DNA of 64,000 nt, from positions 32,001 through 96,000 of IMG/VR virus record IMGVR_UViG_3300021130_000224; one strand, given 5' to 3'. Shown piece after piece: positions 9,414 through 41,821 of the stretch (position 1 is the stretch's first letter; the number at the start of each line of letters is the position of its first letter). Below the pieces are notes generated by a model. That model worked only from the letters and a program-made list of their open reading frames with translations. It did not search any database and had not been told where the DNA came from. The position numbers and the translations under genes are program-made. This DNA comes from a virus.

Positions 9414-10340
9414 ATGAAAGACAAACTGATATCGCCGGCCAGAGTATATGCCAGAGTTAAAGAAGAGATGAGATCTTACTTTAACACCGGGGCTATTGAT
9501 GACTTGCTCTTCCCAATCTGGACAAAGGATTGTATAAATAAATTTGAGAATACATATCTTCCACTAAAAGAAGCTGTAATGGATATGCACCACCATAAGT
9601 GCACACTTCCTTGCGACTTCAAAGCAGTGAGAGAAGTATGGATGACTTTTACTTACGACAAAGGTCCTGTCACATCTCCTCATGTTTTCTATTACCAGAC
9701 TGACTGCCGTATCAATCCTGCACCTGCTCCAGGTGAAATTTGTGAAGATTGTGTACCAGGGTATCAGTGCATGGCTCCTTCTCAAACACCTACACCTGTA
9801 GCATTACCATCTCTTTGTGGTGTGCCGCCAGAGTATGTAGTAACACATAAGGTAATGGAGCAGATGATGTTTCGTTTCCATGTTACAGGGATGCTGAAAC
9901 CAGGTAATTTTAAAACTATTGGTAAGTGTGCAAATGACTCTCCCAACCTTGATGCATATTGCATTGATACATTTGATATTGTGGGTGACAAACTTGTTAC
10001 CTCTTTTGCTCAAGGTACTGTATACATGGCATACTTTGCTGAGAATGAAATAGTACCAGAAGATGAAGGTCCTGATGCTGGTTACTATATGATACCAGAT
10101 AATGACCCATTTGAAAAGTATCTTATTGCATATTTAAGGTACATGGTTTACCAGCAATTATTTGATCAGAGCACAGATGAAAGCTTTAATCAGATAAAAG
10201 CAAAAAGAGATGATGCAGAGGATAAGATGTGGCATGCTTATACAAATGCAAAAGCCTATGCTGTCAACCAAGATATCTACTCAGTTGAAAGAGCAATAGT
10301 AAGAAGTTATAACAAAAACAATAGGTTCAGAATCAGGTAG
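9414..10340 (+). CDS. Tail tubular/ring protein (P22 gp4-like, crAss Ttub)
   Basis: Size, position immediately before the large stabilisation protein, and motifs TLPCDF and YYMIPDNDPFEKYLIAY. Confidence 0.6.
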   Translation: MKDKLISPARVYARVKEEMRSYFNTGAIDDLLFPIWTKDCINKFENTYLPLKEAVMDMHHHKCTLPCDFKAVREVWMTFTYDKGPVTSPHVFYYQTDCRINPAPAPGEICEDCVPGYQCMAPSQTPTPVALPSLCGVPPEYVVTHKVMEQMMFRFHVTGMLKPGNFKTIGKCANDSPNLDAYCIDTFDIVGDKLVTSFAQGTVYMAYFAENEIVPEDEGPDAGYYMIPDNDPFEKYLIAYLRYMVYQQLFDQSTDESFNQIKAKRDDAEDKMWHAYTNAKAYAVNQDIYSVERAIVRSYNKNNRFRIR

Positions 10341-10342
10341 TT

Positions 10343-13300
10343 ATGGCAGGTAATCAAAATATGAATCAAAACAGGGCACTAGCCGGCTTGAATACTGACA
10401 ACATTATAAGTCAGGTTCAGGAAGGTTATGTTACAGATGCACTGAATGCTATCAATGGTTCATTTGATGGGAACCAGGTTACTTATCAGAATGAAGAAGG
10501 TAACGTACAGTGCATTACAATGCCTACTGGATATAAGTGCATTGGGCTAAAAAATATAATGGAGATATCTCAAGTATGGTATTTCATTACTAACACGACT
10601 ACCAACTATTCTATGATAGGATATGTGGCAAGTAATAATTGCACATTTGTTCCTGTCATAGATGATTCTGTATTTGGTAGCGATTTGTTGAATTTCAACA
10701 TAGCTTACCCTATCCATAAAATTGAAATAAAGACAACCAACTGTTCAACTCAATTGTATTGGACAGATAAATATAACCATCGTAGATTTCTTGATATCAA
10801 TAACCTACCATGGCAGACCGGTTCTCCAGGTGTACTGGATACAAACAAAATGGAGATACAACCCATTTTTAAAATTCCAGAAATTACACCAACTGCAATA
10901 ACAGTTGGCGGTAATCTTTTAGAGGGTACATACCAATTTGCTATACAGTACTCAAGTATTAAAGGTGAAGGAATGACATCTTGGTATTCGGTAACTAACC
11001 CTGTTAGTATCTTCCTTGAGTCAAAGGTATCTGCAAGTTATAATCTGCAGACAAACTACGCCATCCCATTGGTTATCAGTAATCTTGACATGACAAGATT
11101 ATATGAATATTTTAATCTTGCCGTAATCAAGACAATTAATGCAGTGACAACAGTAGAGTATGTTGGCACCTATTATATTCAGACTGATACATACAATCAT
11201 ACCTATACAGGTGATGAACAAAGTAGTACCAATATCCAATTGACCTTAATGGATATTATGACTCAGAACGACTACTATGATCTGGCCGGTGATCTTACTC
11301 AAGTAGATAATACTCTTGTGTGGGCAGACATGGTTAAAGAAGAGGATATTAGTTATCAAAAGATATTTAACCAAGTCAAGGTACACTGGGGAACTTCTCA
11401 GATGCCAGTAGGTCAAACTATTGGTTATCACAATGGAGTAGAGTGTGCAGAAGCAAAAGGATATTTCAGGGATGAGGTATACGCACTTGAAGGTTGCCTT
11501 TTGTTTAATAACGGTAAACAATCTACACGTTTTCATATACCAGGCAGAGAAGCTACTGCATATGATTTGGAAGCAATTTCTAATGCTGATGAGCAAGCTG
11601 TAGTAACAGCAACTTGTCCTGCACCTCTTATGCCAAGATGGAAAGTATATAATACCGGTTCAGTACTGGGATCTTTACCGGGGTCAGCAGATCTTTGTAC
11701 TGGTATCCGACCATGGCAATATGGTGAGATGTCATATTGGGAGTCGGAAGAGATATACCCAAACAATGCTTTTATCTGGGGTACACTGGCTGGTCAACCT
11801 ATTCGACACCACAAGTTTCCTGATTGTACAGTTACTCCTATACATGACAGTGCTGTTTCACCCGGGCCAGGTGTGGGCTATTCTCCTGGTTACGTATACC
11901 CTATAGGTTTCAAAATAGATATTCAGTCACTCTATACTGCAATTATTAACTCTCCTGATCTTACAGAAGCTCAAAAGCGTTCAATTACTGGCTTTAAGAT
12001 AATGAGATCTGACAGAGCCGGTGAGAGAAGCATTATAGCAAAGGGTATGTTCTATAATGTAGGACAATATGATAAAGATGGGTCAACCTATTTTTATCCA
12101 AACTACCCATTCAATGATTTGAACCCGGATGTATTTATTTCATCAAAGCCTGTAACATCTATTCCTTATACTTGGAACCACAAACTTACAGGCAATACTG
12201 ATGCAGGTACTCCTTTAAACAATTTCCAAAATAGTAGATTTACATTTCATAGTCCTGATACTCATTTCTATCAGCCTTCAGGTATCCAAGATTCATTAAT
12301 GAACCTTGAGACAGCAGAGTATGGTACTTGTAAAGCTCACTTTGTAAAAGTCAAGAACAATGCAGGTGAGAAAATCAGAACTATAAATGCACTGGAGATT
12401 GCTCTGGCTGCAGCTTTTGTGTCTACTGTTGGTATTGATATAAATATAAGTAACTCTGCAACGGTTGGAACTACTACTGATACAACTACTACTGTAGATA
12501 TCCGACCAACATTTAATCCTCAAAACTTCTTCCCGACATATAATAATATGTTGGACATACTGGATAAATTGTCTCCATACTACAATTATGGATGGCAATA
12601 TAATGCAGTAGGGTATTATACAAACTCTGTTCCTATTCCTCAAAACGTAGGTAATAAAGTTAGATTTATTAACTATGGTGGTTACATTACACCTGGTCTA
12701 CAAGGAACATTTGGAGATGTTCATCCTATCAATAATACAGGAAGAGAATCTTCTGTATATGTTTCTATAGCCGGTAGTATGTTATATCCTCATCAGCAAG
12801 TTAATACCAATGGACAGAATCTTGGTGTACCTATAGATACATCAAGGAAGATTGCATCGCAAGTTGGCATGCGTGAAAGTTCAACACCTTTCTATGAACC
12901 AATATCAGCATACTATGGTTCAATTAAAGCAATACGTCCTGGTCAATACGGTCAAGTGTTTTCATACAGGCCAATTGACACCGGTACATTTGGTGCATTC
13001 TTTGACACTCAAGGTAATCCTATAAATGACCACCCAATTGTTTATGGTGGCGATTGCTTTATTAACTTGTTTGCACTCAAGATAAAACATCCATTCTATT
13101 TAAAGTCAACAGTTGATAAGCCAGATGGTTTTGATATTGATTACAACCAAGATGCTGATCCAAACAATACTTCTCAGGCCTACACAAATACAGGCAATGT
13201 AGGTTATCCTATATGGTATTATTCTACTAGCAACCTTCCATTTGTAGCAGATCCATTGTTGCATGGAGGCTTAGTAAATCTAAATAATAGTCTGAACTGG

Positions 13301-15205
13301 TTAAATGGTTTATATAACAATATAGGAGCACCCGGCAACAATCTATTTACAAATTTCTTTGATGTATTAGGAGCAATGGTTGGAACTGTAGTAATTATAC
13401 CTGTACTTGTCTTAGAGATATTGGAAATATTTGTAGGACTGATTACAGGCCACCTGCTCACTACTGTTGGCCTCAAGGTAACTAATCTTGATTACTACCA
13501 ATATGATGACATCTATGAAAAGGGTATGGCATATTTATACGCATATGGTATCCCCTATTACTTCTGTGAGTCTCAGGTAAACGTAGATATGCGACAAGCA
13601 TATAATGACAGAGAAGGTAACTTCTATCCTAATGTGGCTACCGATATTCCAGATGAGTGGGTACAGGAAACCAATGTGCCTATTGCATTTGACAACACTT
13701 ATACATATAATAAAACTTACAGTAAACAAAATCATGAAACTGCTTTTACTGTCCTTAGACCTGATTGGGAACCTGGACAACAATGTTACATCACTTATAA
13801 TAACAGAGCTGTATGGAGTGAAGCATCTGACATGGAGGATACAAGAAATAACTGGCTCGTATATAAGCCGGCAAATACCTTTGACTTCCCGAAATCGTTT
13901 GGATCTTTAGTTGCAATGGATAGACTGGAATCCAGAGCTGTAATGGTAAGATATGTAAACCATACACAGTTATATAACGCCCAGGCTACTATTGAAACTA
14001 CGGCTATAAATGCAGCTCTTGGTACCGGTGCACTATTCTCCGGTACTCAACCAATTGACTTCAATATGTCTGATTCTGGTTATGCAGGTACTCAGCACAA
14101 GTTCTTATTGCAAACAGAGCATGGTCACATCTTTGCTGATGCAATGAGAGGTCAGATAATCTTAGTTAGAGGTACAGCAATCGAAGAGCTTTCAAATGAA
14201 AAATACCACAATGCAAAATGGTTCCAAAATAATTTACCATTTAACATTATAAAATATTTTCCAACGTATCCTATTGATAATCATTTTAATGGCTGTGGTT
14301 TACATGGTGTGTATGATGATTACTATAAGAGGTTAATGTTAACCAAAATTGACTATACTCCATATGACGGAGTTATGTACGATGGTACTAACTTTTACAT
14401 AGAGGAACTAGTTACACAAAACGTAAAATTACACTCGCAAACTACCCTACAAAAAGTAATTGTACAGCTTGGTGACCCAGAGTATTTCTGCAACAAAAGT
14501 TGGACAATGAGTTTCTCTTTCTTATCTAATAGCTGGATAAGTTGGCATTCTTACATCCCGAATTTCTATGTTCAGAACAGTGTCTCTTTTCAATCAGGTA
14601 AGAATGATGACACTTGTACTGTATGGAATCACAACCAGACATTTACATTGTTCAATAACTTTTATGGTCAGGATTATCCTTACATCATAGAGTATCCATT
14701 CAGTTATCAATACCTTGATCAGCTATTGCAATATGTAGAGGAGTACATGACTGTATTAAAATACAATGATGAGGGTATCTATATTGAGCCGAATGAAACA
14801 GTTTATTACACGCAGACAATTGTCTACAATAAACAAGCATCTACTGGGTTACTTAACCTTATACCAAAAGATATTAATAACAGGGCTCAGTATTTTAGCT
14901 ACCCTAAATACAACCCAGATTCTATAGATATTCTTGTAACAAAGGTAGATCATATGTATTCATACAATATGTTGTGGAATAATCTGAAGAGTCCTAACCT
15001 TACACAATGGACAAATAACTGTACACCAGAATTAGGTAATAAAACATTAAATCAGGTTAACTTTGATTACTCAACAAAGAGTTTTCAGAAGTATCCTCTC
15101 AGGGCCAAAGACACCTTGATCAGGCAAATGTCAAATAGAGTGTCAATGGCTTACAAAATGATTAGTAAATTTATAGTCGCTAAGACTCAAAATATGATCA
15201 GCTAA
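10343..15205 (+). CDS. Tail stabilisation/muzzle protein (crAss Tstab)
   Basis: 1620 aa beta-rich; GLNTD..ALNA..QNEEGN start, LYWTD, GYFRDEVYA..FHIPGR, IRHHKFPD, GGDCFI and WISWHSYIP motifs typical of crAss muzzle proteins. Confidence 0.75.
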   Translation: MAGNQNMNQNRALAGLNTDNIISQVQEGYVTDALNAINGSFDGNQVTYQNEEGNVQCITMPTGYKCIGLKNIMEISQVWYFITNTTTNYSMIGYVASNNCTFVPVIDDSVFGSDLLNFNIAYPIHKIEIKTTNCSTQLYWTDKYNHRRFLDINNLPWQTGSPGVLDTNKMEIQPIFKIPEITPTAITVGGNLLEGTYQFAIQYSSIKGEGMTSWYSVTNPVSIFLESKVSASYNLQTNYAIPLVISNLDMTRLYEYFNLAVIKTINAVTTVEYVGTYYIQTDTYNHTYTGDEQSSTNIQLTLMDIMTQNDYYDLAGDLTQVDNTLVWADMVKEEDISYQKIFNQVKVHWGTSQMPVGQTIGYHNGVECAEAKGYFRDEVYALEGCLLFNNGKQSTRFHIPGREATAYDLEAISNADEQAVVTATCPAPLMPRWKVYNTGSVLGSLPGSADLCTGIRPWQYGEMSYWESEEIYPNNAFIWGTLAGQPIRHHKFPDCTVTPIHDSAVSPGPGVGYSPGYVYPIGFKIDIQSLYTAIINSPDLTEAQKRSITGFKIMRSDRAGERSIIAKGMFYNVGQYDKDGSTYFYPNYPFNDLNPDVFISSKPVTSIPYTWNHKLTGNTDAGTPLNNFQNSRFTFHSPDTHFYQPSGIQDSLMNLETAEYGTCKAHFVKVKNNAGEKIRTINALEIALAAAFVSTVGIDINISNSATVGTTTDTTTTVDIRPTFNPQNFFPTYNNMLDILDKLSPYYNYGWQYNAVGYYTNSVPIPQNVGNKVRFINYGGYITPGLQGTFGDVHPINNTGRESSVYVSIAGSMLYPHQQVNTNGQNLGVPIDTSRKIASQVGMRESSTPFYEPISAYYGSIKAIRPGQYGQVFSYRPIDTGTFGAFFDTQGNPINDHPIVYGGDCFINLFALKIKHPFYLKSTVDKPDGFDIDYNQDADPNNTSQAYTNTGNVGYPIWYYSTSNLPFVADPLLHGGLVNLNNSLNWLNGLYNNIGAPGNNLFTNFFDVLGAMVGTVVIIPVLVLEILEIFVGLITGHLLTTVGLKVTNLDYYQYDDIYEKGMAYLYAYGIPYYFCESQVNVDMRQAYNDREGNFYPNVATDIPDEWVQETNVPIAFDNTYTYNKTYSKQNHETAFTVLRPDWEPGQQCYITYNNRAVWSEASDMEDTRNNWLVYKPANTFDFPKSFGSLVAMDRLESRAVMVRYVNHTQLYNAQATIETTAINAALGTGALFSGTQPIDFNMSDSGYAGTQHKFLLQTEHGHIFADAMRGQIILVRGTAIEELSNEKYHNAKWFQNNLPFNIIKYFPTYPIDNHFNGCGLHGVYDDYYKRLMLTKIDYTPYDGVMYDGTNFYIEELVTQNVKLHSQTTLQKVIVQLGDPEYFCNKSWTMSFSFLSNSWISWHSYIPNFYVQNSVSFQSGKNDDTCTVWNHNQTFTLFNNFYGQDYPYIIEYPFSYQYLDQLLQYVEEYMTVLKYNDEGIYIEPNETVYYTQTIVYNKQASTGLLNLIPKDINNRAQYFSYPKYNPDSIDILVTKVDHMYSYNMLWNNLKSPNLTQWTNNCTPELGNKTLNQVNFDYSTKSFQKYPLRAKDTLIRQMSNRVSMAYKMISKFIVAKTQNMIS

Positions 15206-17661
15206 TGAAAAAGAACTGGTTAAAGCAATATGCACAGGAGGGTAAAGTAGATTATTGGAATGAACTTGCCAAGGCTAAGTATGGTCAGAATATGCCAAAT
15301 ATGACTGATGAACAAATAGCTATAGTAAGAGATACTAATCGTGTTACCGATGACCCTTTGATGATACCTGGTTCACCAAGAGTAAAGGCTCAATCAGGAA
15401 CTAAGGTATCAAGCAAGGGTTATAAGAAGAACTCTCCAGATAAGAATGAGCCGATGCTTACTATCCCAAGCAACAGGATAACTATGCAGGATGTAGAGCA
15501 TCCTGTAATGGCATACCCTTCTGCCGGTAATCCTACTTTCATGCATCCAGGTGGTGAGTACTACTTTCCTCATGCTGATTATGTAACAGAAGTACCTGCT
15601 ATGGCTCAAGGTGGAATGATTAAAAGAGCAGATGGTCATTACTCTAAAAGAGGTTTGTGGGATAATATTAGAGCAAATGCTGGCTCTGGTAAAAAGCCTA
15701 CTAAAGAAATGCTTAAACAGGAAAAGAAAATAAAAGCTTCTGAAAAAGCACAAGATGGAAAAAAACTTAGTGCATCTGATCTTGCTAAATTAAGACAAGC
15801 AGTAGCTAACTATAATCCTTCTCCTTATCAAGATATGGACCCTGCTATGTTGCAGCAATATAGAGAGAATCAACGTGTAATGCAACTTGCTGCTACACCT
15901 CAAGGTAAAGTACAACTTAAAAAAGAAGCAGAAGATAAAAAGTATGCAAACAAGAAAAAACAAGAAGTAGCAAAAGATAAAGAAACAAGAAAAGAGCTAC
16001 AAGAACAATATGCAAGACAAAGGTTTGCAGATGACCCATCTGTTATAAACCCTGCATACTGGCAAACAGATCCTCAGACAGGTAGGACTCCTCAACAACG
16101 TCTTGATGACATGGGTACAGACTTGCAAACCCGGGTATTTCGTGGTGGCACTGATGTAATTGACAACTTGAATCCTGGTGTATGGGTTGCAGGAATGGCA
16201 GGTAACCTTGCAAAAGCACCATTAAAAGCACAACAAGAAAACTCTTACACGCCATATCTATCTGCTCTTGGTGAACCACTTGCATGGGGGATAGGTGAGG
16301 AATTAATAGCACCTTATGTAAATAAAGCAGTTGGTAAAGCATCTCAAAAAATAAAAGATGCGTACTCTAAACTAAATGATGCTGTAAAACCACCAAGGTA
16401 TAGTCTTCCAATGATGACAGATATTGTGCCTCAAGTATCACAAAATATAAAAGCAAATTATAAAGATATATTAAAAGCAAGACAAATTTTTTCACCTACA
16501 TTAACCGAAGGTTATGAGTATATAGATGAATTAGCTGATGCTTACTCAGTACAAGATAAACTTGATGTTTTTGGACAGTATAAAAATTATCCTTTTTCAG
16601 AACAACGTCTTTGGAATCCATATGATCCAAATTCTATTAAACCTTTATCAAAAAGTGAATTTGCTAAAAAGGTAAAAGGTAATTTAAAATCATTAGCATT
16701 TCAACCAGAAAAAATAGATGCTGGATATAAAAAAGGAATAGAAGAAGCAAATACTTTTGTTAGAGGAGTTTCTACCAATTGGGATGCTATTAAAAAATCT
16801 AATCCAGAAGGATTTAAAAATATAACTCAAACATTAGAAAAGGTAGGAATAGATTGGAAAAATAATCCAGATCAAGCTGCTGTATATATGGCAACACATA
16901 TTCCAGGTGATACAGGTTATGGTAGAGCAGGTTTAAATCCAAACGAACATGCATTATATACTTCTAATTCTGAAGGAACTGCAGAAGGGTATACATATGG
17001 AGATGGCTATATTGTAAAAGGAAGAAAACCTATTAATTTTAAAGGAAACAATAGAAGAGAATGGTTAAAAGAATTACCAACTGTTATTGATGAAGATATA
17101 ATAAATGCTCATGAATTAGGCGTTAAAGAAAACCCAGCTAAATTTGATTTTCGTAACATGATGGATTTCGGTAATGATAATTTTGAATTTTCTAAAACAA
17201 AAAAATTAAATAATAATTTAGTTGATAAATGGGAAAATGATTACGCAGCTTTTTTAGAAACGCAAAATTTAGAACACCCTGATCCTATTGTAGGTTACGG
17301 TTTTTACGATTTTGATGATGTTCCAGGCATTGAAGTGAAGGGATTAGAAGATCTTAAAAAAATACATAATTTTAAAGAAGATTGGTTTAATAAACACAAA
17401 GACAAAATTAAAGAATTTGATATACCTGAGTTACCAAGTTCCTATATTAAAAAAACAGACCATATTAAATTTAATGATTATGCTCATTATTTACATGTAG
17501 GAGAACCTGGGCAAAAAGTATTAGAACCAATAAATGTAAAACAAATAACTCCTGAAATTTGGAAAAAAACGAATAGGGGACATTATGGGACACCATCAAA
17601 TGGGTTATCAAAACAAAAATACGGTGGTAAATTAACAAAGAACTGGTTACAAAATTATTAA
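15205..17661 (+). CDS. Putative virion cargo protein with AxxG-delimited modules and a C-terminal ART-like domain
   Basis: Follows the muzzle gene (cargo position); repeated AQxG/AKYG motifs; FVRG...LYTSNS..AEGY. Confidence 0.6.
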   Translation: MKKNWLKQYAQEGKVDYWNELAKAKYGQNMPNMTDEQIAIVRDTNRVTDDPLMIPGSPRVKAQSGTKVSSKGYKKNSPDKNEPMLTIPSNRITMQDVEHPVMAYPSAGNPTFMHPGGEYYFPHADYVTEVPAMAQGGMIKRADGHYSKRGLWDNIRANAGSGKKPTKEMLKQEKKIKASEKAQDGKKLSASDLAKLRQAVANYNPSPYQDMDPAMLQQYRENQRVMQLAATPQGKVQLKKEAEDKKYANKKKQEVAKDKETRKELQEQYARQRFADDPSVINPAYWQTDPQTGRTPQQRLDDMGTDLQTRVFRGGTDVIDNLNPGVWVAGMAGNLAKAPLKAQQENSYTPYLSALGEPLAWGIGEELIAPYVNKAVGKASQKIKDAYSKLNDAVKPPRYSLPMMTDIVPQVSQNIKANYKDILKARQIFSPTLTEGYEYIDELADAYSVQDKLDVFGQYKNYPFSEQRLWNPYDPNSIKPLSKSEFAKKVKGNLKSLAFQPEKIDAGYKKGIEEANTFVRGVSTNWDAIKKSNPEGFKNITQTLEKVGIDWKNNPDQAAVYMATHIPGDTGYGRAGLNPNEHALYTSNSEGTAEGYTYGDGYIVKGRKPINFKGNNRREWLKELPTVIDEDIINAHELGVKENPAKFDFRNMMDFGNDNFEFSKTKKLNNNLVDKWENDYAAFLETQNLEHPDPIVGYGFYDFDDVPGIEVKGLEDLKKIHNFKEDWFNKHKDKIKEFDIPELPSSYIKKTDHIKFNDYAHYLHVGEPGQKVLEPINVKQITPEIWKKTNRGHYGTPSNGLSKQKYGGKLTKNWLQNY

Positions 17662-17662
17662 T

Positions 17663-20600
17663 ATGAAAAAGAAAGCAACATTACACCCATTTCTTAAAAT
17701 GGCAGGAGTTAAATCTGAAAAGGAACTATATGATAAGTATCCTACAGATGAGCACTTCTTTAAAGCTTATCCTCAAGCTAAATATGGAATGATGATGGCA
17801 CAAGATGGTGCAATGACATTACCCAATGCTAAACCAAATGTAGCATGGCAACCATCTGGTCAAGGATTAAGTCCTGCAGATAATGTGGCAGGTCTAAATG
17901 CTGCAGGTCCAATGCCACAACAGGGTGGATATCAAGCTGCTCAAGGTCCTGTATTTGAAGGACAAATGCCTGAACAAGAACAGCAAAAACAGGAACAACC
18001 TGAAGTCAAAGAAAATAAAAAGGGTAATAATAAAAATAAACTAAAAATAAGTGCAGGTAAAAAAACTTGGGACCCATTTGCAAAAGATAATGCATGGAAT
18101 ACAGGTAAAGGTGTTGCTACTACAGATGTAATAGCAGGTGGGCTTGCTATGACCGCAGGGGCAATACCTTTTCAGCCGGCCAAGAAAAATCAGGATATTT
18201 TACCACCAGCAATTACTACCGGCAATTATGGTTATGGTAGCCAGGCATCCTTTGAAAATGGTGGTAACATCTCTCCGACAAAAGCTCGTGAGATGCTACA
18301 CAATCCTCCTCATGGTAAACCTCTAAGCGAGAAACAACGTAAGTACTTTGGTGCAATAGCTTCTGGTTATGCAGATGATGGTGCTAAAATGGCAATAGGT
18401 CAGCTTGGTCAAATAGAGCATAAACTGAATGAACTAAAAAAAGTAGTTACTCCTGATTCAGAAATAGAACCATGGGTAGCAAGCAAAGTAACATTAGCTG
18501 CAGACTATCTAAATAATGTAGGTAACTACATGCAGTTTAACCCTGATGCACAACCTCAAGGTCAGCAACAAATGCAACAACCAGGTATGTACATGGGTGG
18601 TTATTTACGTGCAGATGGTGGCCCTATGATTACACATGTAAAACCTTCTCCGTATACTTACTACCGTCCAATGACAAAAACAAATCGTCAGAAGATGGAC
18701 ATGCCTGATTACATGCCTGGTCAAAGTACTCCTGATTTACCTTTTGCTGCTAATGGTATTAATATACCTGGAGTAGGAGGTTATCAGGCACCAGTTACAG
18801 ATCAAGAAAGGGAACAGTGGAATCAGTATCAATCTACAATGTCTCACCAACCCGGAACATATGTAAGAAACTGGCAGCACAATCAGGATTTCCAAAAACA
18901 AATGGCACAGCAAACTGGTTTTGATTACAATAGAGCCGGTGCAATACAAGCCGATATGCAAGCTCGTAGCCAACAGTATCCTGGCTCAGTAAGTGGTATA
19001 AAACCCGGTGCAACTGAAAACCAGAACTGGGGAGGTGATGCTAATTGGGTAGGTGATAGAGAAAGACAAAAGGCTTATGGTAAATATGAGTATTTGCATT
19101 ATGATCCTAAAGGTAATTTATATCCAGGAGAAGCTGGTCATAAAGAAGCAAGTTTTACTCCTATGACCAAAGAGCAAATGGGAAATTGGGAAAACTCTGC
19201 TTATACTAAAGGTCCTAATCAATGGGTAACTAATAATCAAGGTATTGGAATGAATGCTCCTCAATCTGAGATAGATAAACTTTATCAACCTGGAGCACAA
19301 GGTAGTGCTCCTTCAGCCGGAGGCTTTGGTTCAAATACTCCTGTAGCAAGTTCTACTCAACCTCGTACAAAAGCTTTTCCTACAATGGATCAAGCCAAAG
19401 CTGCTTATGCTAAAAAGAAAGAAGGTGTTGAAACAAAATGGAATGCTACTAGTGGAGAATATGAAGAAGTAGGTAAAGGAAGTAAAGCAGTTGCAAATAC
19501 CGATAATTCAGGCCCAGGTCAAGAAGCTTATTCAGTTGATGCCACAAGACGTACAGGAAAAGGTTCAGATGAAGCAAAATATGGTAAGCAAATGATACCT
19601 GGAATGTATCACCCTGACCACGATATGGAAATGCTTGATCAATATCCTCACAAGATGGGTGGTATGTACAAACCGTATTCCCATACATACACAATGGCTC
19701 AAGGTGGACCTATTCCATTTGCAAATGGTGGCAATACGGGTACAGATGTACATGTAGAAGATAGTAAATTTAAAATGCTTTCTCCGCATACAGCCGAAAT
19801 TGGAGGAGATTATCATTCTAATGGTGGTACAGATATACAAGCCAACGGACAAAAAGTAGAGGCAGAAAAAGGAGAAACCCTTCACATACAACCTGACGGA
19901 AGTACTATTGTTGGTGGTAATCTTATTTTTCCAGGTACCAATACTAAAATAAAAAATGTTTACAAAAAAATAGCTAAAAATTTGGAGGCACCTCTTGCTA
20001 AGATGCAAAAGAAAAATGATAAGATAAAAGATAAAGCTAGTTATTTTTTAAATGAATATGGTAAAGCTGGAGATGGTCCTACTAATCAATTCAGAGCCCC
20101 TGCTTTCAATTATGGTAAAGTACTTGCTGACATGAATGAGCAGAACCAAAGAAGCATAGAAGATAAACAACAAGAAATTGTAGCAATAAAAGGTAAGGTA
20201 ACTGATGTACAAAATAAAATGCTGGAACTTGGTGGGATGATTGATCCTGAACATGGTGCCAAAAAGGTATCTCAAATGTTTAAAGGTAAGGATCAATTTA
20301 CAGCAAAGTGGGGTACGAGAATGGCACAAAAAGGTATTACATTAAAACAAGGAGCAGTTGATACATTTGATCCTAATATGGACCCAGGTATTACAGGTGA
20401 GCAACCTAAGTCAACACCTTATGAATTTGACCCATCTAAATCAGGTGTTGTTCCTGAATCTGAACCTAAACATCCAGATTGGGCTTACAAGCCAGATGGA
20501 AGTAAGATGACTCCTGAAGAAATGCAGAAAAATCTTATGGATAGAAAAAAACCAGAAGGTAAAGGCAAAGGTAAAGGCATAAGAGAAAAGCATGTAATTA

Positions 20601-21415
20601 ATCCAAATGCAATTAGGGATATATTTGAACAAGCCGATCCTTATCAGTCAATGCAGGTACAACCCTACCTTGAGCCAGAGTATAACGTATCTTTCCAACA
20701 AAAGAAGAATGCTATACAATCTGCTTTTGCCCCGGCAATGAAAGCTGCTAAAACTTCTGGACAACAAGCAGCAATAGCTGCTCAGATGGCAGAACAACTT
20801 GGAGCAGTTGATAGTGAAGAGTTTAACTTTAATCAGCAGAATAGAGGTCAGATACTTGGAAGGAATCTTGGTGAGATGAGAGGTGTTCGTGATACAAACA
20901 TGAAACTTGGAATGGATGCTTATGAGAAAGGTTTAGGTGCAAAAGAAGCAGCACGTCAGATAAGAAGACATGGTGGTGAAAAAGTATTTTCTGACTGGAG
21001 AACTGTTGATGCCGAGAATAAAAGACTTGGTACATATGAAGATTTTGCAGGATGGTTCCAAGATCCTGCTACAAGAGATTATATAAGAACTCTTCCTCCT
21101 GAAAAATTAACTGAAGCTATTGCAAGTATTGTTGATCCTAATAAAAAGGAAATTGTCACTTCTACTGAAGAAGATGGACCAAAAGGTAAAAAGAAAAAGG
21201 TTCAGACAAAACAAGAAGAAGCATACTTTGGTACATATTTCCCAGGTATACAAAGAACATACTTTGGAGGTGGTGCAGTAGGTGGTGGAATGGGACATGG
21301 TGGTGGAGGTATGCATGGAATGCCAGGACATGCCGGCTCAATGGCCTCAAGGTATTCTCCGGGAGGTGATGCATCTTACTATGAAAAGAAAAAGAAGAAG
21401 AAAAAGACTACCTAA
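17663..21415 (+). CDS. Putative virion cargo protein; low-complexity and multi-module, with about 15 xxxG(G) motifs and a poly-Lys tail
   Basis: Q/G/P/M-rich; contains the GDYHSNGG..VEAEKGE motif; lies in the cargo gene block. Confidence 0.6.
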   Translation: MKKKATLHPFLKMAGVKSEKELYDKYPTDEHFFKAYPQAKYGMMMAQDGAMTLPNAKPNVAWQPSGQGLSPADNVAGLNAAGPMPQQGGYQAAQGPVFEGQMPEQEQQKQEQPEVKENKKGNNKNKLKISAGKKTWDPFAKDNAWNTGKGVATTDVIAGGLAMTAGAIPFQPAKKNQDILPPAITTGNYGYGSQASFENGGNISPTKAREMLHNPPHGKPLSEKQRKYFGAIASGYADDGAKMAIGQLGQIEHKLNELKKVVTPDSEIEPWVASKVTLAADYLNNVGNYMQFNPDAQPQGQQQMQQPGMYMGGYLRADGGPMITHVKPSPYTYYRPMTKTNRQKMDMPDYMPGQSTPDLPFAANGINIPGVGGYQAPVTDQEREQWNQYQSTMSHQPGTYVRNWQHNQDFQKQMAQQTGFDYNRAGAIQADMQARSQQYPGSVSGIKPGATENQNWGGDANWVGDRERQKAYGKYEYLHYDPKGNLYPGEAGHKEASFTPMTKEQMGNWENSAYTKGPNQWVTNNQGIGMNAPQSEIDKLYQPGAQGSAPSAGGFGSNTPVASSTQPRTKAFPTMDQAKAAYAKKKEGVETKWNATSGEYEEVGKGSKAVANTDNSGPGQEAYSVDATRRTGKGSDEAKYGKQMIPGMYHPDHDMEMLDQYPHKMGGMYKPYSHTYTMAQGGPIPFANGGNTGTDVHVEDSKFKMLSPHTAEIGGDYHSNGGTDIQANGQKVEAEKGETLHIQPDGSTIVGGNLIFPGTNTKIKNVYKKIAKNLEAPLAKMQKKNDKIKDKASYFLNEYGKAGDGPTNQFRAPAFNYGKVLADMNEQNQRSIEDKQQEIVAIKGKVTDVQNKMLELGGMIDPEHGAKKVSQMFKGKDQFTAKWGTRMAQKGITLKQGAVDTFDPNMDPGITGEQPKSTPYEFDPSKSGVVPESEPKHPDWAYKPDGSKMTPEEMQKNLMDRKKPEGKGKGKGIREKHVINPNAIRDIFEQADPYQSMQVQPYLEPEYNVSFQQKKNAIQSAFAPAMKAAKTSGQQAAIAAQMAEQLGAVDSEEFNFNQQNRGQILGRNLGEMRGVRDTNMKLGMDAYEKGLGAKEAARQIRRHGGEKVFSDWRTVDAENKRLGTYEDFAGWFQDPATRDYIRTLPPEKLTEAIASIVDPNKKEIVTSTEEDGPKGKKKKVQTKQEEAYFGTYFPGIQRTYFGGGAVGGGMGHGGGGMHGMPGHAGSMASRYSPGGDASYYEKKKKKKKTT

Positions 21416-36200: not shown

Positions 36201-39200
36201 AAACAAAACTAATAGTGTAAAAGGCCCGGCAGAGATAACTTCTTATTTTACTCTATCTTCTGTTCTACTTGAAAGAAGTGACCTTGATGAGAATGATAGA
36301 AATAGTCTTTTAAACATGAACCATCTCTATCAGAAAGAACTTGAGCAATTAGGTTACAATCAGGAATGGATAGATGAAAGAAAGAAAGAGGTTATTGAAA
36401 AATATAAAGCAAGCAAAGAGCTTATTAATGCTAAAATAGGTGAGATCAGACAAGGTGAAGTTTCAGCATTCTTTGAAGCATTAAATAAGCTAAACAAAGA
36501 AGGTGAGTTTGACTTACATAAAAAGATAGCAGAAGCATCAGGTATTATGTCTTTTGAAGAATTTAATACAAAAAATATCTTTGAACAGAATACCAAAGAA
36601 GCTATTGAGAATAAGTATCAGCAAAACATACATGATATTGTAAGCCATCCTTATAATTTTGATAAGCTTGTTGAGCCCAATAGTGCAGAAGAGCTTAAAT
36701 CTTTTGAAGCTAAACTTGAAGAAACTCGTAATTCTAAAAAGTCACAGAAAGAAAAAGATCTACTTGCTGAGGAAAAAGCACGTAAGAAATCAGGTAACGT
36801 AGATTACCTGGATACTATTGACCCTATCAAGGTGTCAGAACAAAGGCAGGTAATGCTTACTGCAAAAAATCAAATAGGTATTGCTGCTCAGGCAAATACA
36901 GGTAACTCACTTGCACATAGTGCACCAGAGCCAATTGTTATTGATTCAAATGTACCATTGTCTTCACAGGATCTTAAAGAAATACCTGTAGATGCAAATG
37001 GTAATAAAGATTATTCAATAAAGCTTGCACACAATAGTGTAGAAAAAGATGGTAGAAAATTACCTACTATATCTGGAGGAGAAGTTAATCTTGGTAAGAT
37101 ATCCGGATTGATTTCACAAATAATAGATGGTTCAGTGGATGCTGCAAATGATCCTTATTTGATGAGAGTATTCCCATCAAAGGATGCTGTATCAACTGCT
37201 GTTATGTTGACAAGGCTTGGTTGTGATATAGGTGATATAGTAATGTTCTTGAACCAACCTATTCTTAAAGAATTGTATTCTAAACAAGAAGCACTTGCAG
37301 CAAGAAGATTATTTGATCCTACTTATAGGAAATCAAATGATACAATGCTTCAGAATGTTAAAGCACAATTTGGCAAAGGTAAACCTGTGTTTGTAGATAA
37401 AGTATTGTCTTTTGATATGTTATCTGATATGATTGCTGAGTATGAAGTAAATCCTACCTTGAGAGGTAAAGATGAGTATTCTGCATATCAACGACTGATA
37501 CTTGATGAATACAAGAAGTATAAGCTTTACTCAGACCATCTGTTCCAATTCCAAATGGGTACTACCTGGGACGGTTTGGATAATCCTTCTCCTGCTTCTG
37601 TTTATTTAAAAAACAGAATATTGGAGCAAACTAAATGGGGTAATGTATTTGGTGACGGTAATCAAATACTTAAAGATAGCTTTGTAAAGACCAGAAAAGA
37701 GACTGTGGAAGAAGGTGCTAAAGCACTTGAAAAAGTATACAAAAATACTTTTCCTTACATAAAGTCTATATGGGATGCATTTAGTAAACGTACCATTCGC
37801 ATAGGCAATGATGCTAAGAGAGCAGCAATGGATAAAGCCAATATTTCATTTATTGATTACCTTACTCAGATAACTACATTACCAGGTGGTAAAACAATGA
37901 ATGCATATATTGGTGAATTGTTCTTTAAAGATGATGTGTTTGCACAAGAGTTTAATAAAGCAAAAAGAGAAAATGCTAAAAAGAAAGGAACTCCTGAGTA
38001 CAACATGGCTTTGAACATGCTAAGGTTAGATAGACAGATCTTCTCAAGGGATAGCAGAACACTTTCATTGAGAGAGAAATCTAAAGATGCTTCTATACAA
38101 AATATTCTTACTGACAGTTTCAGAGAACTGAAGCAAAGTAACCCCGCACTTTATGAGAAAATAGTTTTATTTGGCCATCTGCAGTCAGGTGTTACTGATA
38201 CTAAACTGTCTTTCAATAAATTTATACCTCACGAAGATTATAGTAAAGCTTTGATAAGAGGTATTGAACAACTTGATGGAGGTGATAAAACTATTCTTGA
38301 ACAGTTTACTAAAACTAACCAGTTTTATAAAAACAACTGGATAAATGATGAGATAGTACCTTCTGTAGGTAGTTATCTTGAAGGTGAATATAGAGCAGAT
38401 AATGTTTCTAATTCAGTAATTGTACTTCAGAAAGGTAAGTATGGATCTGAAAATCCTGCTGTCAAGGTAATGAGTAGACTGAACCCTACAACCGGCAAGT
38501 ACTATACAGAAGCTGAAGAAGCTGATCTTGAAGGAAAAGGTTTTAGATTTAAACAAACACCTAAGCTATTCCGTAGAATAGAAACAGACAATGAACCATA
38601 TACAGTTACTGATTCTAAAGGTAATGAGTACTATGTATTCAAACAGATAAATGCTTTAGGTGATGGTAATAATGTTCAGGAATACTATACCACAAATGAA
38701 CCGTCAAAAAGAGATCTTCATTTTAAAATAACAGAAGACTCAGATGATACGGTAATAGATGCTGTTGATAAGAGATACTCTGGTGGCAAGGTAACTAATG
38801 AGGAAGAAGATATGGATGATACATTTGAATCAACATCTACTGTTGCAACACCTATAAATAGAGAGTTGTCAAACATAAAATTTGAAGAACATCCATCTAC
38901 AAACTATGCAGACAGAACAAAAATAAATGCTTCTTCTGATGCAACTATAGCACTTGCTACAGACTTTACTTCTGCTGGAGAAAAAGCTACTAAAAATTCA
39001 GTAGAACAGCAAGGTAAAAAATACATACCAATTGATTTGAATAAAGGTTTAGACGTTACTCAAGAAAGAGTTAACAAATTAGTACAGATGCTTAATGAGT
39101 CTGCAGGGAAAGATTTATTTGCTAAAAAAGAAATATCTCTAAACATTGCAGGTAATGGTATATATACTATGAAAGGTAGATATACACAAGAGCAAGTAGA

Positions 39201-39981
39201 TGATTTTACATATCAATTACTCAAAAAAGCTATTGAATCCCCTGATCTTAAAGTTAAAATATCAAGTATTAATACAGGTGGTCAAACAGGTTTAGATGAA
39301 GCTGGTGCAAAAGCCGGATTAAAATTAGGAATACCAACAAAAATACTTGCACCAAAAGGTTGGAAATTCAGAGATATAAATGGTAATGATATTTCTGATG
39401 AAAAAAGATTTAAGGATAGATTTAAAATGAGTATACCTGTATCTACAGAACGTACTACAGTAAAACCAAATACAAAAGGTGAGTATAATATTTATGCAGG
39501 TACCGGAGAAAATGTAGTTTTATCAAATATGACACCAAGAAAGTTTATTTATAATGGTGGAGAATTTAATTCAGTAGAACAAGCATTTCAGGAAGCTAAA
39601 CTTCAGTTTACAAAAGGTACTGAAAAAGATATTGCCACTCATAAAAAAATCAGTGAAGCAAAATCAGCTTTTGAGGCTAAAAAATATGGCAGAGAATACA
39701 GTACATTAGATGCAAAAGCTTGGGATGAAAATAGTAGTAAATTTATGAAGATGTTTATTAAATCATCTTTTGAACAAAATCCACAAGCACTTAAAGAATT
39801 GCTTGCTACTGGTGATGCTAAACTTACACATAATCAAGATGCTGGTAAATGGGGTACTGAATTTCCAAAAATCCTTATGGAAGTAAGAGATGAATTTAAA
39901 GGTAAAACAACTGCAGAACCAGCAGTAGATGCAAGAGCAAAAAATAATGAAGAAGGTAATAAACCAAATCCAGCATGTTAG
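24226..39981 (+). CDS. Giant virion-packaged DNA-dependent RNA polymerase (phi14:2 gp66-like), polyvalent, with zincin, SLOG and NADAR domains
   Basis: GFRIPTQ (about 35605-35625) and catalytic AGSDFDVDK (DFDVD at 35782-35796); HEAFH at 31276-31290; GGQTGLDEAG SLOG motif; C-terminal NADAR motifs. Confidence 0.85.
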   Translation: MPGTDQFGFPTLPNMDNSQKDANQTLSENQNNVVNPAFVLPSLTRESKNLIPNKSSASGVFDDIMKTAETLTSKGPSLTELTTKTAQDVPKEYRTGKFPMYYGPETEDFYGKSQGTGEKLLYGVGRGISSGSRAFLQSTVGLVNDIASVSTGGSFTDNNLNKWFDTWQKADDLDMPLYQTKEERDRSGWDPRGWVTGNNVAHFIESLGFMAGMAGGAYVTAGAGEFAIGARVTGSIMAAYDEAIASFSELAAKQAILVGVEDGEVVAKALSQQLMNDVKAIQAEATSGAVKLDKVNKLLNASKADLDAKYAAKLLGAEKIKQTIYGGIGNLGIASSAGFEAKEQFKQNYIDSMRERGFELTPEELQKLEGVSTSVARWTATVTGALGAISFGHAFKGIVAKGEAETAVREEINNLVNKEILTSEEIAANKIAKTATGPHIEGKTEYVDPTQATKKADNFIGKVTQSARRVGKVAGQNIGKIYDPFGAITMAEFSMVSPAIENYFSKQYQTGDADVWADAIGPNLERVFGTKEGIGELISGGLASGFFQVGENIKTSGKRKSATEAAANGMNKTYMGTYLKDLTQSIKVGRAFDEEEKDAIMSGDKKKQYDSRMSKLFAYMLPRVKHGKLEYIKSDIRGYRELLATDEGRKQLRASGELPAEGDLVKQAEELNQHLNKIEAYAENADKTYKALRLNHGSDPRFKDEVFEKLLYASSMIDNASERIVNISKELDTNKDITPQIRTQLVELQKLMSRPLTAEESFELLKNLGESREEIINKLSGRKNISDLRNKIVSNIKGLSINETKQQELIGKMGDMLKLTNSKTGYLKDYQTMILNPEMAHDFSRNSLPGFHEEMPMGKGEGEEGGPEKLTKTIKVKHAGSPFILGSDGKKIFTPSDLEVGEEYIGGVRELYDEYKGEPTKMKNFPKFRLEGEVEKERQTSKGILKEKKILISVPVGENGDRRYMEIDPKVFEKYKLTKLKDLQKNEEAMFYVNHANDVFTYEFQKGNSDAIKDGIITFDKDKNVLAFRYRSNDGKVRDHVIDLQRALEEDRLKFKDSKKEISKEEYDRIKNYRDPNYTMKAARQIEIIDEATKEYRTELEEVKGRIKEREDLLGQLQDTIAGIQEKMKKQGTTKKSLTQYTKELVYMQELHDSLHDDLEPLLARREELQSHSDIVEGLKSNILNHPNGVEFIEYLKKSQENIKAEKEKNDTAIEHLKGLISKAKDFIVTLKDSLLKRIAKFEARYPSETPGRIGEMSQSEANTLLTILRANEYDFPKKQGITYDDSSLWKEEQIGTQNPSRLTEQTRALKEFLETNRDFFKDRDEILKDTNILDVKENEIEANEKAIAELLADNKELEKVFNILDKITKQFEEEYKRWKEDVVLTQAYRESPSAQRVLREMQAAMNANSLPIVPTSLLDKAVRAVLRKIPFFKMKGLQRNPFADSIIVDSTNKNTSFYQQHNNWPDRERDFTANLTKWSFKLNGSKFGLGSAIEPDNVKVMVVNTGNQSAFGFEGFVPESYQSYDKSETIFNKGENRDNSRAQVALVYTYQDESGRTFTIDKDGNLLSEIKPGAEQHDFDNMVFTYLDHSNLKRTGAYRAGESKFYDAESFSQDELNAIQASATSMRKKLLDLNGQLLLDFDVMGGFINKPKELDEEISDGTEGDEEPKKKPVINRSVTEVGLMSDSDLSKPNILAVATDVDPENNKVARVDGELIPTALPFLRLKSGKPVILTTNRFTKEQAENIYNVLKKIANSMFRAYGKSEGSAEEGAVDRLRNVSTGKEISAMWRYLSTISYFRRPEEGETLDRNQFYLDGKGNIVMGKTSWKFDPKTLNDPEVKEKIITIIAGSDKIPGLFHNVDSLSLRERGTEPFEEYIVDDNGNVKEVRTWETLNHWYLSDKYPDGTARNKSENDNNIPVTINANVPSSTGDVAIEGRYIKVRGIGEEYKPKIKEKKTEQTHPSAAPKPKAPEPQSAQGKTEPIEEFSFELNGNKYPITDGKIEIVQDYTTYTIIPKIEGNNIKIENAQWSIKDPKTGEVKTAEAKTALKDVFEQKLKEQYADHLAKQAEANKPAEPVVTTDVPVSDIEARRAEIEIKIQEKLKQLDESDKRSLEAIMPNNPNHPTFKVGMRYNDGMRVIIQNAKPSDNFDGREDSYIAITKIIEPAEYRADGKMTKAAKIETTIFNTKEEADKAIADTYAKIQAQVKEGKRQKDANAKFDTELAALDKEGTSTTEEPQVIPAEPQIETKSGKPETTSNVVESVREKAQRLKDQLNGNPPNTRIVQPGEVAVSDHKGHEEFITWLKDKLPGVKYNELHDVVRITGAKSAWGIAKDHIISVFKDAPLSAKYHEAFHPVFDVFLTDREKANVIREFKNRQGKFFDLGSGKYINFADATVYQIADRLAEEFGIYKTTGKMPEYTPKQQNFFKRLWAALTNIFRTPTTIDSIFKKVDEGGFRNTEPLREIGINNYSTVQGLRNRFTEQEISANVKGIALEIYRNLRLDTGKMLKTLEGKTTFKELIDPIKELFNWRFHLEDSEAKFMENGVFTIHAPDSPFGDVQKDSLTQNWQNVLDNWDDYMSEVKSFLKTKGIDFVKKEISGDLEEGESIKESAGEESNNRDYAGDIFQSDAKNNSPKEIKLIFGFVTEDDYDNDLIAKSNFRLQENPKPKMNAISGMDQMSTDTDYFYVVMKEMANVSGLDEMKNKFLSLAQKIPSLVRPYKAIFGEPTANNQPTAEMLRLQHLFEKTFNKQVVTPFMQKISGKESSATINSDSERDTRQIVNDFLSNMTGLHMNTDIVSMDQHGNYTFNTKVLKDPTHKDFIPNPRNGQFPEQKEQMSLEFLNKIGFNFPKEVFNKLSKQDKEKLTKESMRLYDELYRVTAKGSGALISRSGITTPAVDKIADIYLKAERGFRSTQRFTIDGEPAQRYVLHNNLSQNLSEINQVESREKLLQVKPYYGTDPFCQESLLLKENGMWFAETETKGDTRYTPWKDNSKMQVTVTEGIDSNGKKVANKKMNAVTRFMQAMNMNLSGNFYFVTSADSSQDWGARTGETGKFYIPPSVYNNTKYVGDIFAGYLRAEIETIKDFNVNPEKQKWEQLNKKVGGSKIGEQLRFFKGLLSKDAVKKVEEYANGKGPDAELSTSEFVKKIQSDVNEGLNKYISQQVEDAKKMLQKASIIEKGTQGYRWYGLSERVRDLLSADLENKLGRKERPTGDYKKDRDLRIVYNEKEINDIIKFRTLNHLAHGIEMNKVFFGDPAMYKDPFKRMKLFMSGKDFTHTDKGIGVSNLVLADKYNKVGAHTLKKGQVGYHDFTDTLKIFTYDFGDSPSTKIASANWKELPEAYQSNNSIDGQSHIMLPFYREHKLKEGTWPDDREAQYQYDLALFRREATKRFNAGEKKFEKFAYKNNEDDKALKAEDDKLLAQGNPKVANAFYIDKPLAVGMYQSQSRMVPYALKTSTLPLSWELVRGKALEDKYLMMLESGTAYSGPKSQQKFGIPEGAPELYSKVTGKLALTGEIIKAKQLPVSWSDWGKILETSGEKEKITLGSQGTKLDHLHLFTRGIPNDFMTNLSYKERNDQWSKLSPKAKIEKSEFYKLYDNKNKALSALASHGLEVIKDEIGISKNDAGEYELMDASKLVHFLNQEITRRELPQNMKDALGVYLNPKSGKIELTNALETLANFNQIRSIINSLIDKHINSPKVNGKALILASSAMFEDASKGLRVEKINGKDVLVSDHLEFYRIGKDGKPTRRMQVMMTNFMYNELKKKSKLSDAELMKYLMTEEGKELLYGIGFRIPTQGLNSIDSFEIVPFDLRYDKDGQIDYENSKMFVPNTYGDMMVVPAELTTKAGSDFDVDKLFSYLKNFYIDGKGYPRLVKFLDENNSTPEERYVRYVKDSADKKTKIAISAERTEEDDYEKEQFFGKLKDEVKQARELGVKDIKANIKEQINDIRKQAIEQSDSVFAELREVGKKLYSNLSEEVLTEFKALAAENKTNSVKGPAEITSYFTLSSVLLERSDLDENDRNSLLNMNHLYQKELEQLGYNQEWIDERKKEVIEKYKASKELINAKIGEIRQGEVSAFFEALNKLNKEGEFDLHKKIAEASGIMSFEEFNTKNIFEQNTKEAIENKYQQNIHDIVSHPYNFDKLVEPNSAEELKSFEAKLEETRNSKKSQKEKDLLAEEKARKKSGNVDYLDTIDPIKVSEQRQVMLTAKNQIGIAAQANTGNSLAHSAPEPIVIDSNVPLSSQDLKEIPVDANGNKDYSIKLAHNSVEKDGRKLPTISGGEVNLGKISGLISQIIDGSVDAANDPYLMRVFPSKDAVSTAVMLTRLGCDIGDIVMFLNQPILKELYSKQEALAARRLFDPTYRKSNDTMLQNVKAQFGKGKPVFVDKVLSFDMLSDMIAEYEVNPTLRGKDEYSAYQRLILDEYKKYKLYSDHLFQFQMGTTWDGLDNPSPASVYLKNRILEQTKWGNVFGDGNQILKDSFVKTRKETVEEGAKALEKVYKNTFPYIKSIWDAFSKRTIRIGNDAKRAAMDKANISFIDYLTQITTLPGGKTMNAYIGELFFKDDVFAQEFNKAKRENAKKKGTPEYNMALNMLRLDRQIFSRDSRTLSLREKSKDASIQNILTDSFRELKQSNPALYEKIVLFGHLQSGVTDTKLSFNKFIPHEDYSKALIRGIEQLDGGDKTILEQFTKTNQFYKNNWINDEIVPSVGSYLEGEYRADNVSNSVIVLQKGKYGSENPAVKVMSRLNPTTGKYYTEAEEADLEGKGFRFKQTPKLFRRIETDNEPYTVTDSKGNEYYVFKQINALGDGNNVQEYYTTNEPSKRDLHFKITEDSDDTVIDAVDKRYSGGKVTNEEEDMDDTFESTSTVATPINRELSNIKFEEHPSTNYADRTKINASSDATIALATDFTSAGEKATKNSVEQQGKKYIPIDLNKGLDVTQERVNKLVQMLNESAGKDLFAKKEISLNIAGNGIYTMKGRYTQEQVDDFTYQLLKKAIESPDLKVKISSINTGGQTGLDEAGAKAGLKLGIPTKILAPKGWKFRDINGNDISDEKRFKDRFKMSIPVSTERTTVKPNTKGEYNIYAGTGENVVLSNMTPRKFIYNGGEFNSVEQAFQEAKLQFTKGTEKDIATHKKISEAKSAFEAKKYGREYSTLDAKAWDENSSKFMKMFIKSSFEQNPQALKELLATGDAKLTHNQDAGKWGTEFPKILMEVRDEFKGKTTAEPAVDARAKNNEEGNKPNPAC

Positions 39982-40538: not shown

Positions 40539-40539
40539 A

Positions 40540-41820: not shown

Positions 41821-41821
41821 T

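Follow-up and report, generated by a model that had tools for sequence, protein, structure and literature searches.

Introduction

Crassviruses rank among the most abundant phages of the human gut and also occur commonly in environmental habitats. Here we describe two adjacent genes of a divergent crAss-like phage, located in a 64,000-nucleotide stretch of DNA (positions 32,001 to 96,000 of IMG/VR virus record IMGVR_UViG_3300021130_000224; the whole stretch is hereafter called the window), whose products, P0001 and P0002, are mosaics of small modules joined by connectors of the type hydrophobic-x-x-Gly-Gly. Proteins that travel with phage DNA are known from podoviruses, where the ejection proteins (gp14, gp15 and gp16 of T7; gp7, gp16 and gp20 of P22) are packaged in the virion and leave it before the DNA. 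T7 gp16 carries a lytic transglycosylase, paralleled here by the SLT, lysozyme and YkuD domains inserted in relatives of P0002. These ejection proteins have no homology to the window proteins and, to our knowledge, are not known as mosaics of mini-modules with a fixed connector.

Processing directed by Gly-Gly is known from viral papain-like and adenain-type proteases (adenovirus protease, pS273R of African swine fever virus, coronavirus PLpro) and from C39 peptidases acting on double-glycine leaders. These systems share with the window connectors a Gly-Gly and an upstream hydrophobic residue at unit borders, but they differ in that here no cognate protease was found, the hydrophobic residue lies one position further upstream and G-G sites of crAss001 gp45 are intact in the solved virion.

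Polyvalent proteins (Iyer et al. 2017, PMC5512222) are large, are delivered together with the DNA and combine many unrelated domains in variable order; the words "linker" and "glycine" are not used in that paper. Relatives of the window proteins share the multi-domain mosaic, with modules at any position, and include proteins with cell-wall enzymes and ART-PolyVal (the latter in P0124; one relative gave a weak LPD23 match). The window modules are, however, much smaller. The hallmark domains of polyvalent proteins gave no Pfam hit in P0001 or P0002, and PF18818 (MPTase) and PF18760 (ART-PolyVal) were not found genome-wide.

In crAss001 the genes follow the order gp44, gp45, gp46; the cargo proteins gp45 and gp46 are encoded downstream of the muzzle gene, and the RNA-polymerase-related proteins come after them. 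Bayfield et al. modelled residues 425-552 of gp45 (PDB 7QOG and others; crAss_CARG1, PF25725) as one compact domain in the mature virion, and proposed that a single gp45 chain bridges tail and capsid through the portal. The words "proteolysis", "cleavage" and "protease" are absent from their text, in which no search for a connector motif was made. The crAss001 virion gel shows high-molecular-weight bands.

Results

P0001 and P0002 share gene position and architecture with crAss001 gp45

P0001 and P0002 are encoded in the virion block, directly downstream of a muzzle-like gene, which confirms the cargo position given in a preliminary description of this DNA.

10343..15205, + strand: muzzle-like virion protein, 1620 residues (phrog_37948, E 2e-109)
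15205..17661, + strand: P0001, cargo-type mosaic protein, 818 residues (open reading frame and translation)
17663..21415, + strand: P0002, putative cargo protein, 1250 residues (translation; gp45-like architecture, crAss001 C1)

The stop codon of the muzzle-like gene overlaps the start of P0001 (TAATG), and the stop and start codons of P0001 and P0002 are coupled (TAATATG).

Besides its position after the muzzle gene, gp45 resembles the window proteins in several features. Its predicted transmembrane helix (residues 136-158) has a counterpart in a Gly-rich hydrophobic segment of P0002 (residues 150-172), and its Lys-rich C-terminus with two GG is like the tail of P0002, which ends in a run of Lys. 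The same grammar of small modules between aromatic-x-x-G-G motifs is found, including a G-G-W-L element. More specifically, S-A-Y-G-G stands four residues before the tail-barrel helix 214-245, A-K-D-G-G precedes a small module also found in P0002 relatives, and N-A-F-G-G-W-L-N-T-Q-G-G opens the portal-bound domain 425-552. Three GG motifs lie inside residues 425-552, modelled as one chain. The CARG1 domain of gp45 is also present in P0037, a protein related to P0001. The locus differs from crAss001 in that cargo material is spread over two genes, and modules corresponding to M1 and M2 of P0001 (see below) were not noticed on reading gp45. With HMMER, the P0002 family had no significant match to gp45 or to PF25725, the comparison with gp45 returning only non-significant collinear scraps.

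A Gly-Gly connector marks the joints between fused modules

The connector was characterized around M1 and M2, two small modules of P0001. An exhaustive search with both (E 1e-3 or better) retrieved 2696 cluster representatives of 61-2409 residues, with the modules anywhere in the chain. Joint statistics were calculated on 127 new representatives among the best 150, sharing less than 50% identity. In this set, GG was found 0-1 residue before M2 in 109 of 111 internal copies, and again 7-11 residues after M2 in 86 of the 111, with M, F or Y favoured at position -6 upstream of the module and K, Q or N at -4. The pattern [YFMW]xxGG occurred 875 times against 136 expected, a more than six-fold excess over shuffled sequences. 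A longer element, W-L-x-x-Y-x-x-G-G, occurred 50 times against 0.2 expected and is frequent at protein ends: among the 138 relatives found first, 21 start with W-L-x-x-Y-x-x-G-G and 29 end with G-G followed by W-L-x-x-Y within a few residues. This narrower signal, hydrophobic-x-x-G-G, often with W-L-x-x-Y, is real.

M2 is also encoded alone. In 80 viral contigs we found free-standing M2 genes of 42-53 residues. Their products begin with the very residue that comes after G-G in the fusions, yet contain no G-G themselves; free-standing M2 is a very conserved phage mini-protein. The same joint rule applies to a second, unrelated module, the KAREMLH module of P0002. In 12 short relatives this module has a MAKK leader when it is N-terminal and x-G-G before it when it is internal, often with G-G-W-L-x-K-Y after it. 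Because free-standing M2 lacks G-G, and the KAREMLH module behaves alike, the motif belongs to the fusion joints and not to the modules.

As to the carriers of these fusions, Crass_capsid was encoded by nine of ten tested contigs with fused M2 proteins, the tenth being a 44%-complete fragment. Domains that co-occur with M2 in the same proteins are DUF5754, YkuD, peptidase M15, PG_binding_1, lysozyme, SLT, DUF6321 and ART-PolyVal, with crAss_CARG1 in one. Searches of the literature on the processing of crAss cargo and on the DUF families of the co-occurring modules returned nothing relevant. The class of cargo protein is known; no description of the connector grammar or of the mini-modules was found in the searchable literature. 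As a separate observation, the proteins encoded by the free-standing M2 genes (contigs L013, L021, L022, L041 and L073) are 88-97% identical to the window copy despite diverged codons.

Window copies of the connector are mostly degenerate

The preliminary description had read the motif as A/F/Y-x-x-G(G). The six motifs that it listed for P0001 are found at their sites (AQEG at 15232, AKYG at 15274, AQSG at 15388, AQGG at 15604, AQDG at 15748 and QKYGG at 17614), and all 15 motifs listed for P0002 are present. Enrichment of this loose form was not confirmed upon shuffling: [AFY]xxG was at chance level in P0001 (12 observed, 8.7 expected, z 1.2) and in P0002 (31 observed, 23.7 expected, z 1.7). 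Since P0002 is rich in Gly (11.4%) and Ala (9.0%), its raw density of [AFY]xxG is high compared to its neighbours. Enrichment was seen for narrower forms. A 6-residue scoring matrix trained on the joints of unrelated proteins (junction matrix) gave 4 hits in the 2068 residues of P0001 and P0002, and 1 hit when applied to twelve other window proteins with a total of approximately 15,700 residues. AQxG, a pattern picked after the data had been seen, occurs 4 times in P0001 against 0.2 expected (z 8.2). Most window copies are degenerate, with one Gly only (xG; A-Q-x-G), and it is because most window joints have lost one Gly that A-x-x-G was noticed first.

Modules of P0001 and their borders

P0001 has 389 relatives in a protein collection at 90% identity, most of which share just 6-17% of its length at 60-87% identity. 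In BLAST comparisons, alignment starts cluster at residues 59, 68-69, 128-136 and 484 of P0001, and alignment ends at residues 137-139, 180-185, 228 and 802. The elements of the protein are the following.

15214..15243, + strand: N-terminal NWLKQY, then AQEG; corresponds to the W-L-x-x-Y-x-x-G-G start of relatives, in degenerate form
15388..15399, + strand: AQSG junction before M1; relatives have x-S-G-G or Q-Q-G-G (alignment starts at 59 and 68-69)
15400..15603, + strand: module M1, a small beta domain, residues 66-133 (AlphaFold2 predicted local distance difference test, pLDDT, 85-91)
15604..15615, + strand: AQGG junction between M1 and M2, the sole canonical GG connector in P0001 (junction matrix score 13.6; alignment ends at 137-139, starts at 128-136)
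15616..15747, + strand: module M2, basic, 44 residues, residues 138-181 (alignment borders; strong purifying selection)
15748..15759, + strand: AQDG junction after M2; relatives have K-E-Y-G-G-W-L (alignment ends at 180 and 185)
16654..17610, + strand: C-terminal domain, residues 484-802, common to about 40 relatives
17614..17658, + strand: C-terminal QKYGG, then NWLQNY and the stop, an end common to many relatives

Four homology borders of P0001 coincide with AQSG, AQGG, AQDG and QKYGG. The borders at residues 228 and 484 have no motif. Degenerate W-L-x-x-Y elements are present at both ends of P0001; in the non-redundant relatives, W-L-x-x-Y is found at the start in 17 of 127, and G-G followed by W-L-x-x-Y at the C-terminus in 27 of 127.

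M1 is present at varied positions in about 80 of the first-found relatives. In an AlphaFold2 model built from 46 sequences, confidence falls at the G-G and M2 appears as weakly predicted helices; the M1-M2 model had no convincing fold match (Foldseek E above 0.04; best VIA Z 4.9). In Pfam and PHROG scans of P0001 and P0002, the sole hit was to a PHROG annotated as "virion structural protein", and it covered M1. Among annotated phage genomes, P0002 had no match and P0001 had a 134-residue match only, which came from two records of crAssphage and from a contig of an unclassified bacteriophage, and searches of solved-structure sequences with P0001 and with the P0002 family profile gave nothing.

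The C-terminal domain of P0001 may, as a lead only, have an ADP-ribosyltransferase fold and may be injected. Its family alignment (A4) contains an invariant Arg (F-V-R-G) and Y-T-S-N-S, with no invariant Glu seen; in the ESM Atlas, the closest clusters that bear a name are ART-PolyVal, RES, DUF3990 and Arr, all with scores below 0.9, and hhalign gave E 0.11 for this lead. The relative P0037 combines this domain with the CARG1 domain and a C-terminus weakly like that of P0002.

Modules of P0002 and large insertions at the motifs

P0002 has 20 relatives, some of them with SLT, YkuD or lysozyme domains, and 14 P0002-type proteins were aligned (alignment A1). The elements of the protein are the following.

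18110..18178, + strand: Gly-rich hydrophobic segment, residues 150-172 (top Kyte-Doolittle window of P0002, 1.31)
18251..18265, + strand: FENGG junction, nearly invariant in relatives (alignment A1, junction matrix)
18266..18370, + strand: small module starting NISPTKAREMLH, residues 202-236 (12 short relatives)
18368..18622, + strand: YADDG, an optional MAIGQL module (residues 243-309), YMGG and RADGG (module in 3 of 14 aligned proteins)
19574..19732, + strand: junction cluster AKYG, KMGG, MAQGG and FANGG, conserved in A1 (junction matrix hits at residues 677 and 685)
19733..19987, + strand: beta-rich domain and start of a long helix (AlphaFold2 pLDDT 48)
20303..20335, + strand: AKWG and MAQKG junction, with no hydrolase insert in this copy (alignment A1)
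21221..21412, + strand: C-terminal tail, conserved, rich in Gly and aromatic, with a run of Lys at its end (alignment A1)

Of the 26 indel clusters in the P0002 relatives, 8 are no more than 6 residues away from a listed motif, where 3.7 would be expected (P 0.012), and five of the six positions with indels of at least 50 residues sit at a motif. At the site of the FENGG junction, P0011 has 198 extra residues after F-E-D-G-G. Ten relatives lack residues 238-316, a 79-residue module, so that YA runs straight into ADGG, and A1 also contains a 157-residue insertion at the R-A-D-G-G site. In 10 relatives, 31-181 residues are inserted after residue 894, at A-K-W-G...M-A-x-D-G, including cell-wall hydrolase domains such as SLT in P0009. 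In the junction cluster, G681 is invariant in A1 and G682 is present in at least 90% of the sequences.

These alignments, together with those of P0001, confirm that small modules are gained, lost and swapped next to Gly motifs. The proposal that the motifs stand at module boundaries holds for most of the large events in both proteins, and fails at borders 228 and 484 of P0001.

The beta-rich domain of P0002 may correspond to the portal-bound CARG1 of gp45. Comparison with the CARG1-bearing P0037 by hhalign aligned only 25 residues at the expected place (E 0.059); PF25725 (CARG1) gave no Pfam hit in P0001, P0002 or 13 relatives, nor in a six-frame search of the genome. The AlphaFold2 model of P0002 residues 620-810 (pLDDT 48) was too poor for a fold search.

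Selection acts on the amino acid sequence of the joints

M2 copies are 87% identical in amino acids and 75% in nucleotides, and use the same codon at just 50% of the conserved residues. At 17 distinct GG joints, nine codon pairs are used, in keeping with Gly codon usage in general. The window shows no preference for GGAGG. The variety of GG codons and the divergence of M2 codons therefore indicate selection on the peptide, and not recombination or a ribosome-binding site. A Shine-Dalgarno role was rejected because GGT predominates among the Gly codons at the motifs, and a DNA recombination joint is weakened by the free codon choice at G-G and the diverged synonymous sites.

We also observed a 13-nucleotide direct repeat, AAAGAACTGGTTA, at 15210-15222 and 17637-17649, which encodes K-N-W-L at both ends of P0001. 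Since the amino acids are identical, the repeat may be due to chance.

Genomic context

The record is that of a 108 kb virus, 93% complete, inside which the window lies. The same genome encodes a Crass_capsid major capsid protein and a P22-like portal, and its presumed terminase large subunit contains an intein. The gene just upstream of the portal gene (1050 residues; genome 18042-21194; L001:4042-7191, outside the window) carries Intein_splicing and LAGLIDADG_3 homing endonuclease domains (Pfam); it was taken as the terminase large subunit, the terminase domain itself not being returned. In the window, the gene preceding the muzzle-like gene is also recognizable.

9414-10340: CrAss_Ring_1 tail ring protein, directly upstream of the muzzle-like gene (Pfam match)

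Downstream of P0002 are encoded an 899-residue protein and then a giant protein of 5251 residues. The C-terminus of the latter (38875-39900) contains cpYpsA (SLOG) and NADAR domains (Pfam E 1.5e-8 and 8e-14), and no polymerase domain was detected in it. A candidate M28 peptidase (39975-40538) and an ATP-grasp candidate were discarded, as the three genes at 39975-42211 have no Pfam or PHROG match at E 0.01. Further on, a 1835-residue protein of the cargo block (42213-47720) contains a His_Phos_1 histidine phosphatase domain (residues 416-483), and a 234-residue open reading frame (50537-51241) starts with Q-W-L-K-K-Y like cargo N-termini, with no G-G after it and a hydrophobic C-terminus.

Discussion

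P0001 and P0002 are mosaics with a motif that is specific to the joints and selected at the amino acid level. The reading of the motif that we favour, and to which we give about an even chance, is that the connectors are uncut hinges between separately docking modules of ejected cargo proteins. P0001 and P0002 would be packaged in the virion and ejected, each built like beads on a string from modules of 35-70 residues that would fold or dock alone and would be concatenated through hydrophobic/aromatic-x-x-Gly-Gly, often extended by W-L-x-x-Y and a second G-G. As a flexible hinge, the uncut connector would allow the beads to attach to different surfaces inside the virion, in the way gp45 binds the tail barrel and the portal, and would let the chain thread module by module through portal and tail during ejection. 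As a by-product, modules could be added, lost and exchanged at the joints with their neighbours unharmed. That the connectors serve as hinges and in threading, and that they are not cleaved, is our inference.

Several points weigh against this interpretation. A Gly-Gly in 98% of the joints, with a preferred upstream hydrophobic residue, exceeds what a hinge needs, and conservation of this kind is usual for recognition sites. As its free-standing gene shows, M2 can function as a peptide of its own, which would fit its release from fusions. The continuity of the gp45 chain from tail to capsid is an inference of Bayfield et al. and not an observation, and because homology between P0002 and gp45 is not detectable, the gp45 evidence applies here through shared architecture only. 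Cleavage that takes place after ejection, or that is due to a host protease or one of an unknown family, is possible.

Cleavage is the strongest of the alternatives, and we consider it possible but on the unlikely side. The connectors would then be protease sites, and the polyproteins would be processed directly behind Gly-Gly, either inside the capsid or once ejected into the host, releasing small peptides such as M2 and enzyme domains. The near-invariant G-G with its upstream hydrophobic residue at borders does resemble G-G cleavage sites, M2 as encoded alone is identical in extent to what two G-G joints enclose in the fusions, and polyvalent phage proteins have been proposed to be processed into units (PMC5512222). 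Against this, Pfam and PHROG scans of the main open reading frames in the structural and cargo blocks (leaving aside the small and minus-strand frames of the window and the genome's first 14 kb) found no protease, and targeted searches of the whole 93%-complete genome found no MPTase-PolyVal, C39, C48 or S78 peptidase. The module-bearing relatives contain cell-wall enzymes but no processing protease. Three G-G sites lie within the continuously modelled gp45 domain in mature virions, the natural C-termini end in G-G...W-L-x-x-Y and not in G-G, and the hydrophobic residue is at P5, not at P4 as in the consensus of the adenovirus protease or in L-X-G-G.

The preliminary description had suggested that a head protease cuts these proteins into many peptides. 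With no protease found in these scans and searches and three gp45 GG sites inside a modelled chain, this claim is unsupported, and none of our findings shows that the G-G connector is a cutting site. A related proposal, which we regard as rather unlikely, is that the connector is the recognition site of a phage or host protease that would dismantle the cargo after ejection into small effectors, M2 among them. If true, tailed phages would possess a polyprotein-processing system of a new kind, and with it a combinatorial means of delivering mini-effectors.

It is also conceivable, but improbable, that W-L-x-x-Y flanked by G-G serves as a docking or packaging signal for the capsid, the portal, the scaffold or another copy of the motif itself, and is repeated to retain the modules. 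The large excess of W-L-x-x-Y-x-x-G-G (50 vs 0.2), its frequency at protein starts and ends, the presence of W-L-x-x-Y at both ends of P0001 and the G-G-W-L element that opens the ordered portal-bound domain of gp45 are all consistent with such a signal. P0002 and most joints, however, have no W-L-x-x-Y, many joints having only x-G-G, and free-standing module genes carry no motif at all, which does not imply packaging of their products either way.

We give very little credence to the view that there is no special motif, and that we are looking at low-complexity linkers rich in Gly, Ala and Tyr, or at G-G as the conserved edge of an adjoining module. The loose motif is indeed at chance level, P0002 contains 11.4% Gly, and the residues before the M1-M2 joint are the conserved end of M1. 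However, G-G precedes M2 whatever the upstream module and is missing when M2 stands alone, and the excess over shuffled sequences is more than six-fold; the free-standing M2 genes and the joint statistics largely refute this view. Least probable of all is that the motif is kept for a DNA or RNA reason, as a joint for cassette recombination or as an in-frame ribosome-binding site for an internal start at the Met after G-G: the direct repeat AAAGAACTGGTTA at both ends of P0001 and the retention of this Met in M2 speak for it, but G-G codons vary freely, GGAGG is not favoured, and the half-diverged synonymous sites of M2 argue against recent exchange via DNA homology.

In conclusion, the analysis defines new and very widespread mini-domains, M1, M2 and the KAREMLH module, which Pfam does not detect in this protein. 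The connector grammar, which no fewer than 2696 protein clusters share and which also occurs in gp45, a protein of solved structure, delimits functional units of cargo that could otherwise not be annotated, and as a fixed grammar it would offer a sequence-level handle on how large crassvirus cargo proteins are packed, ordered and ejected.

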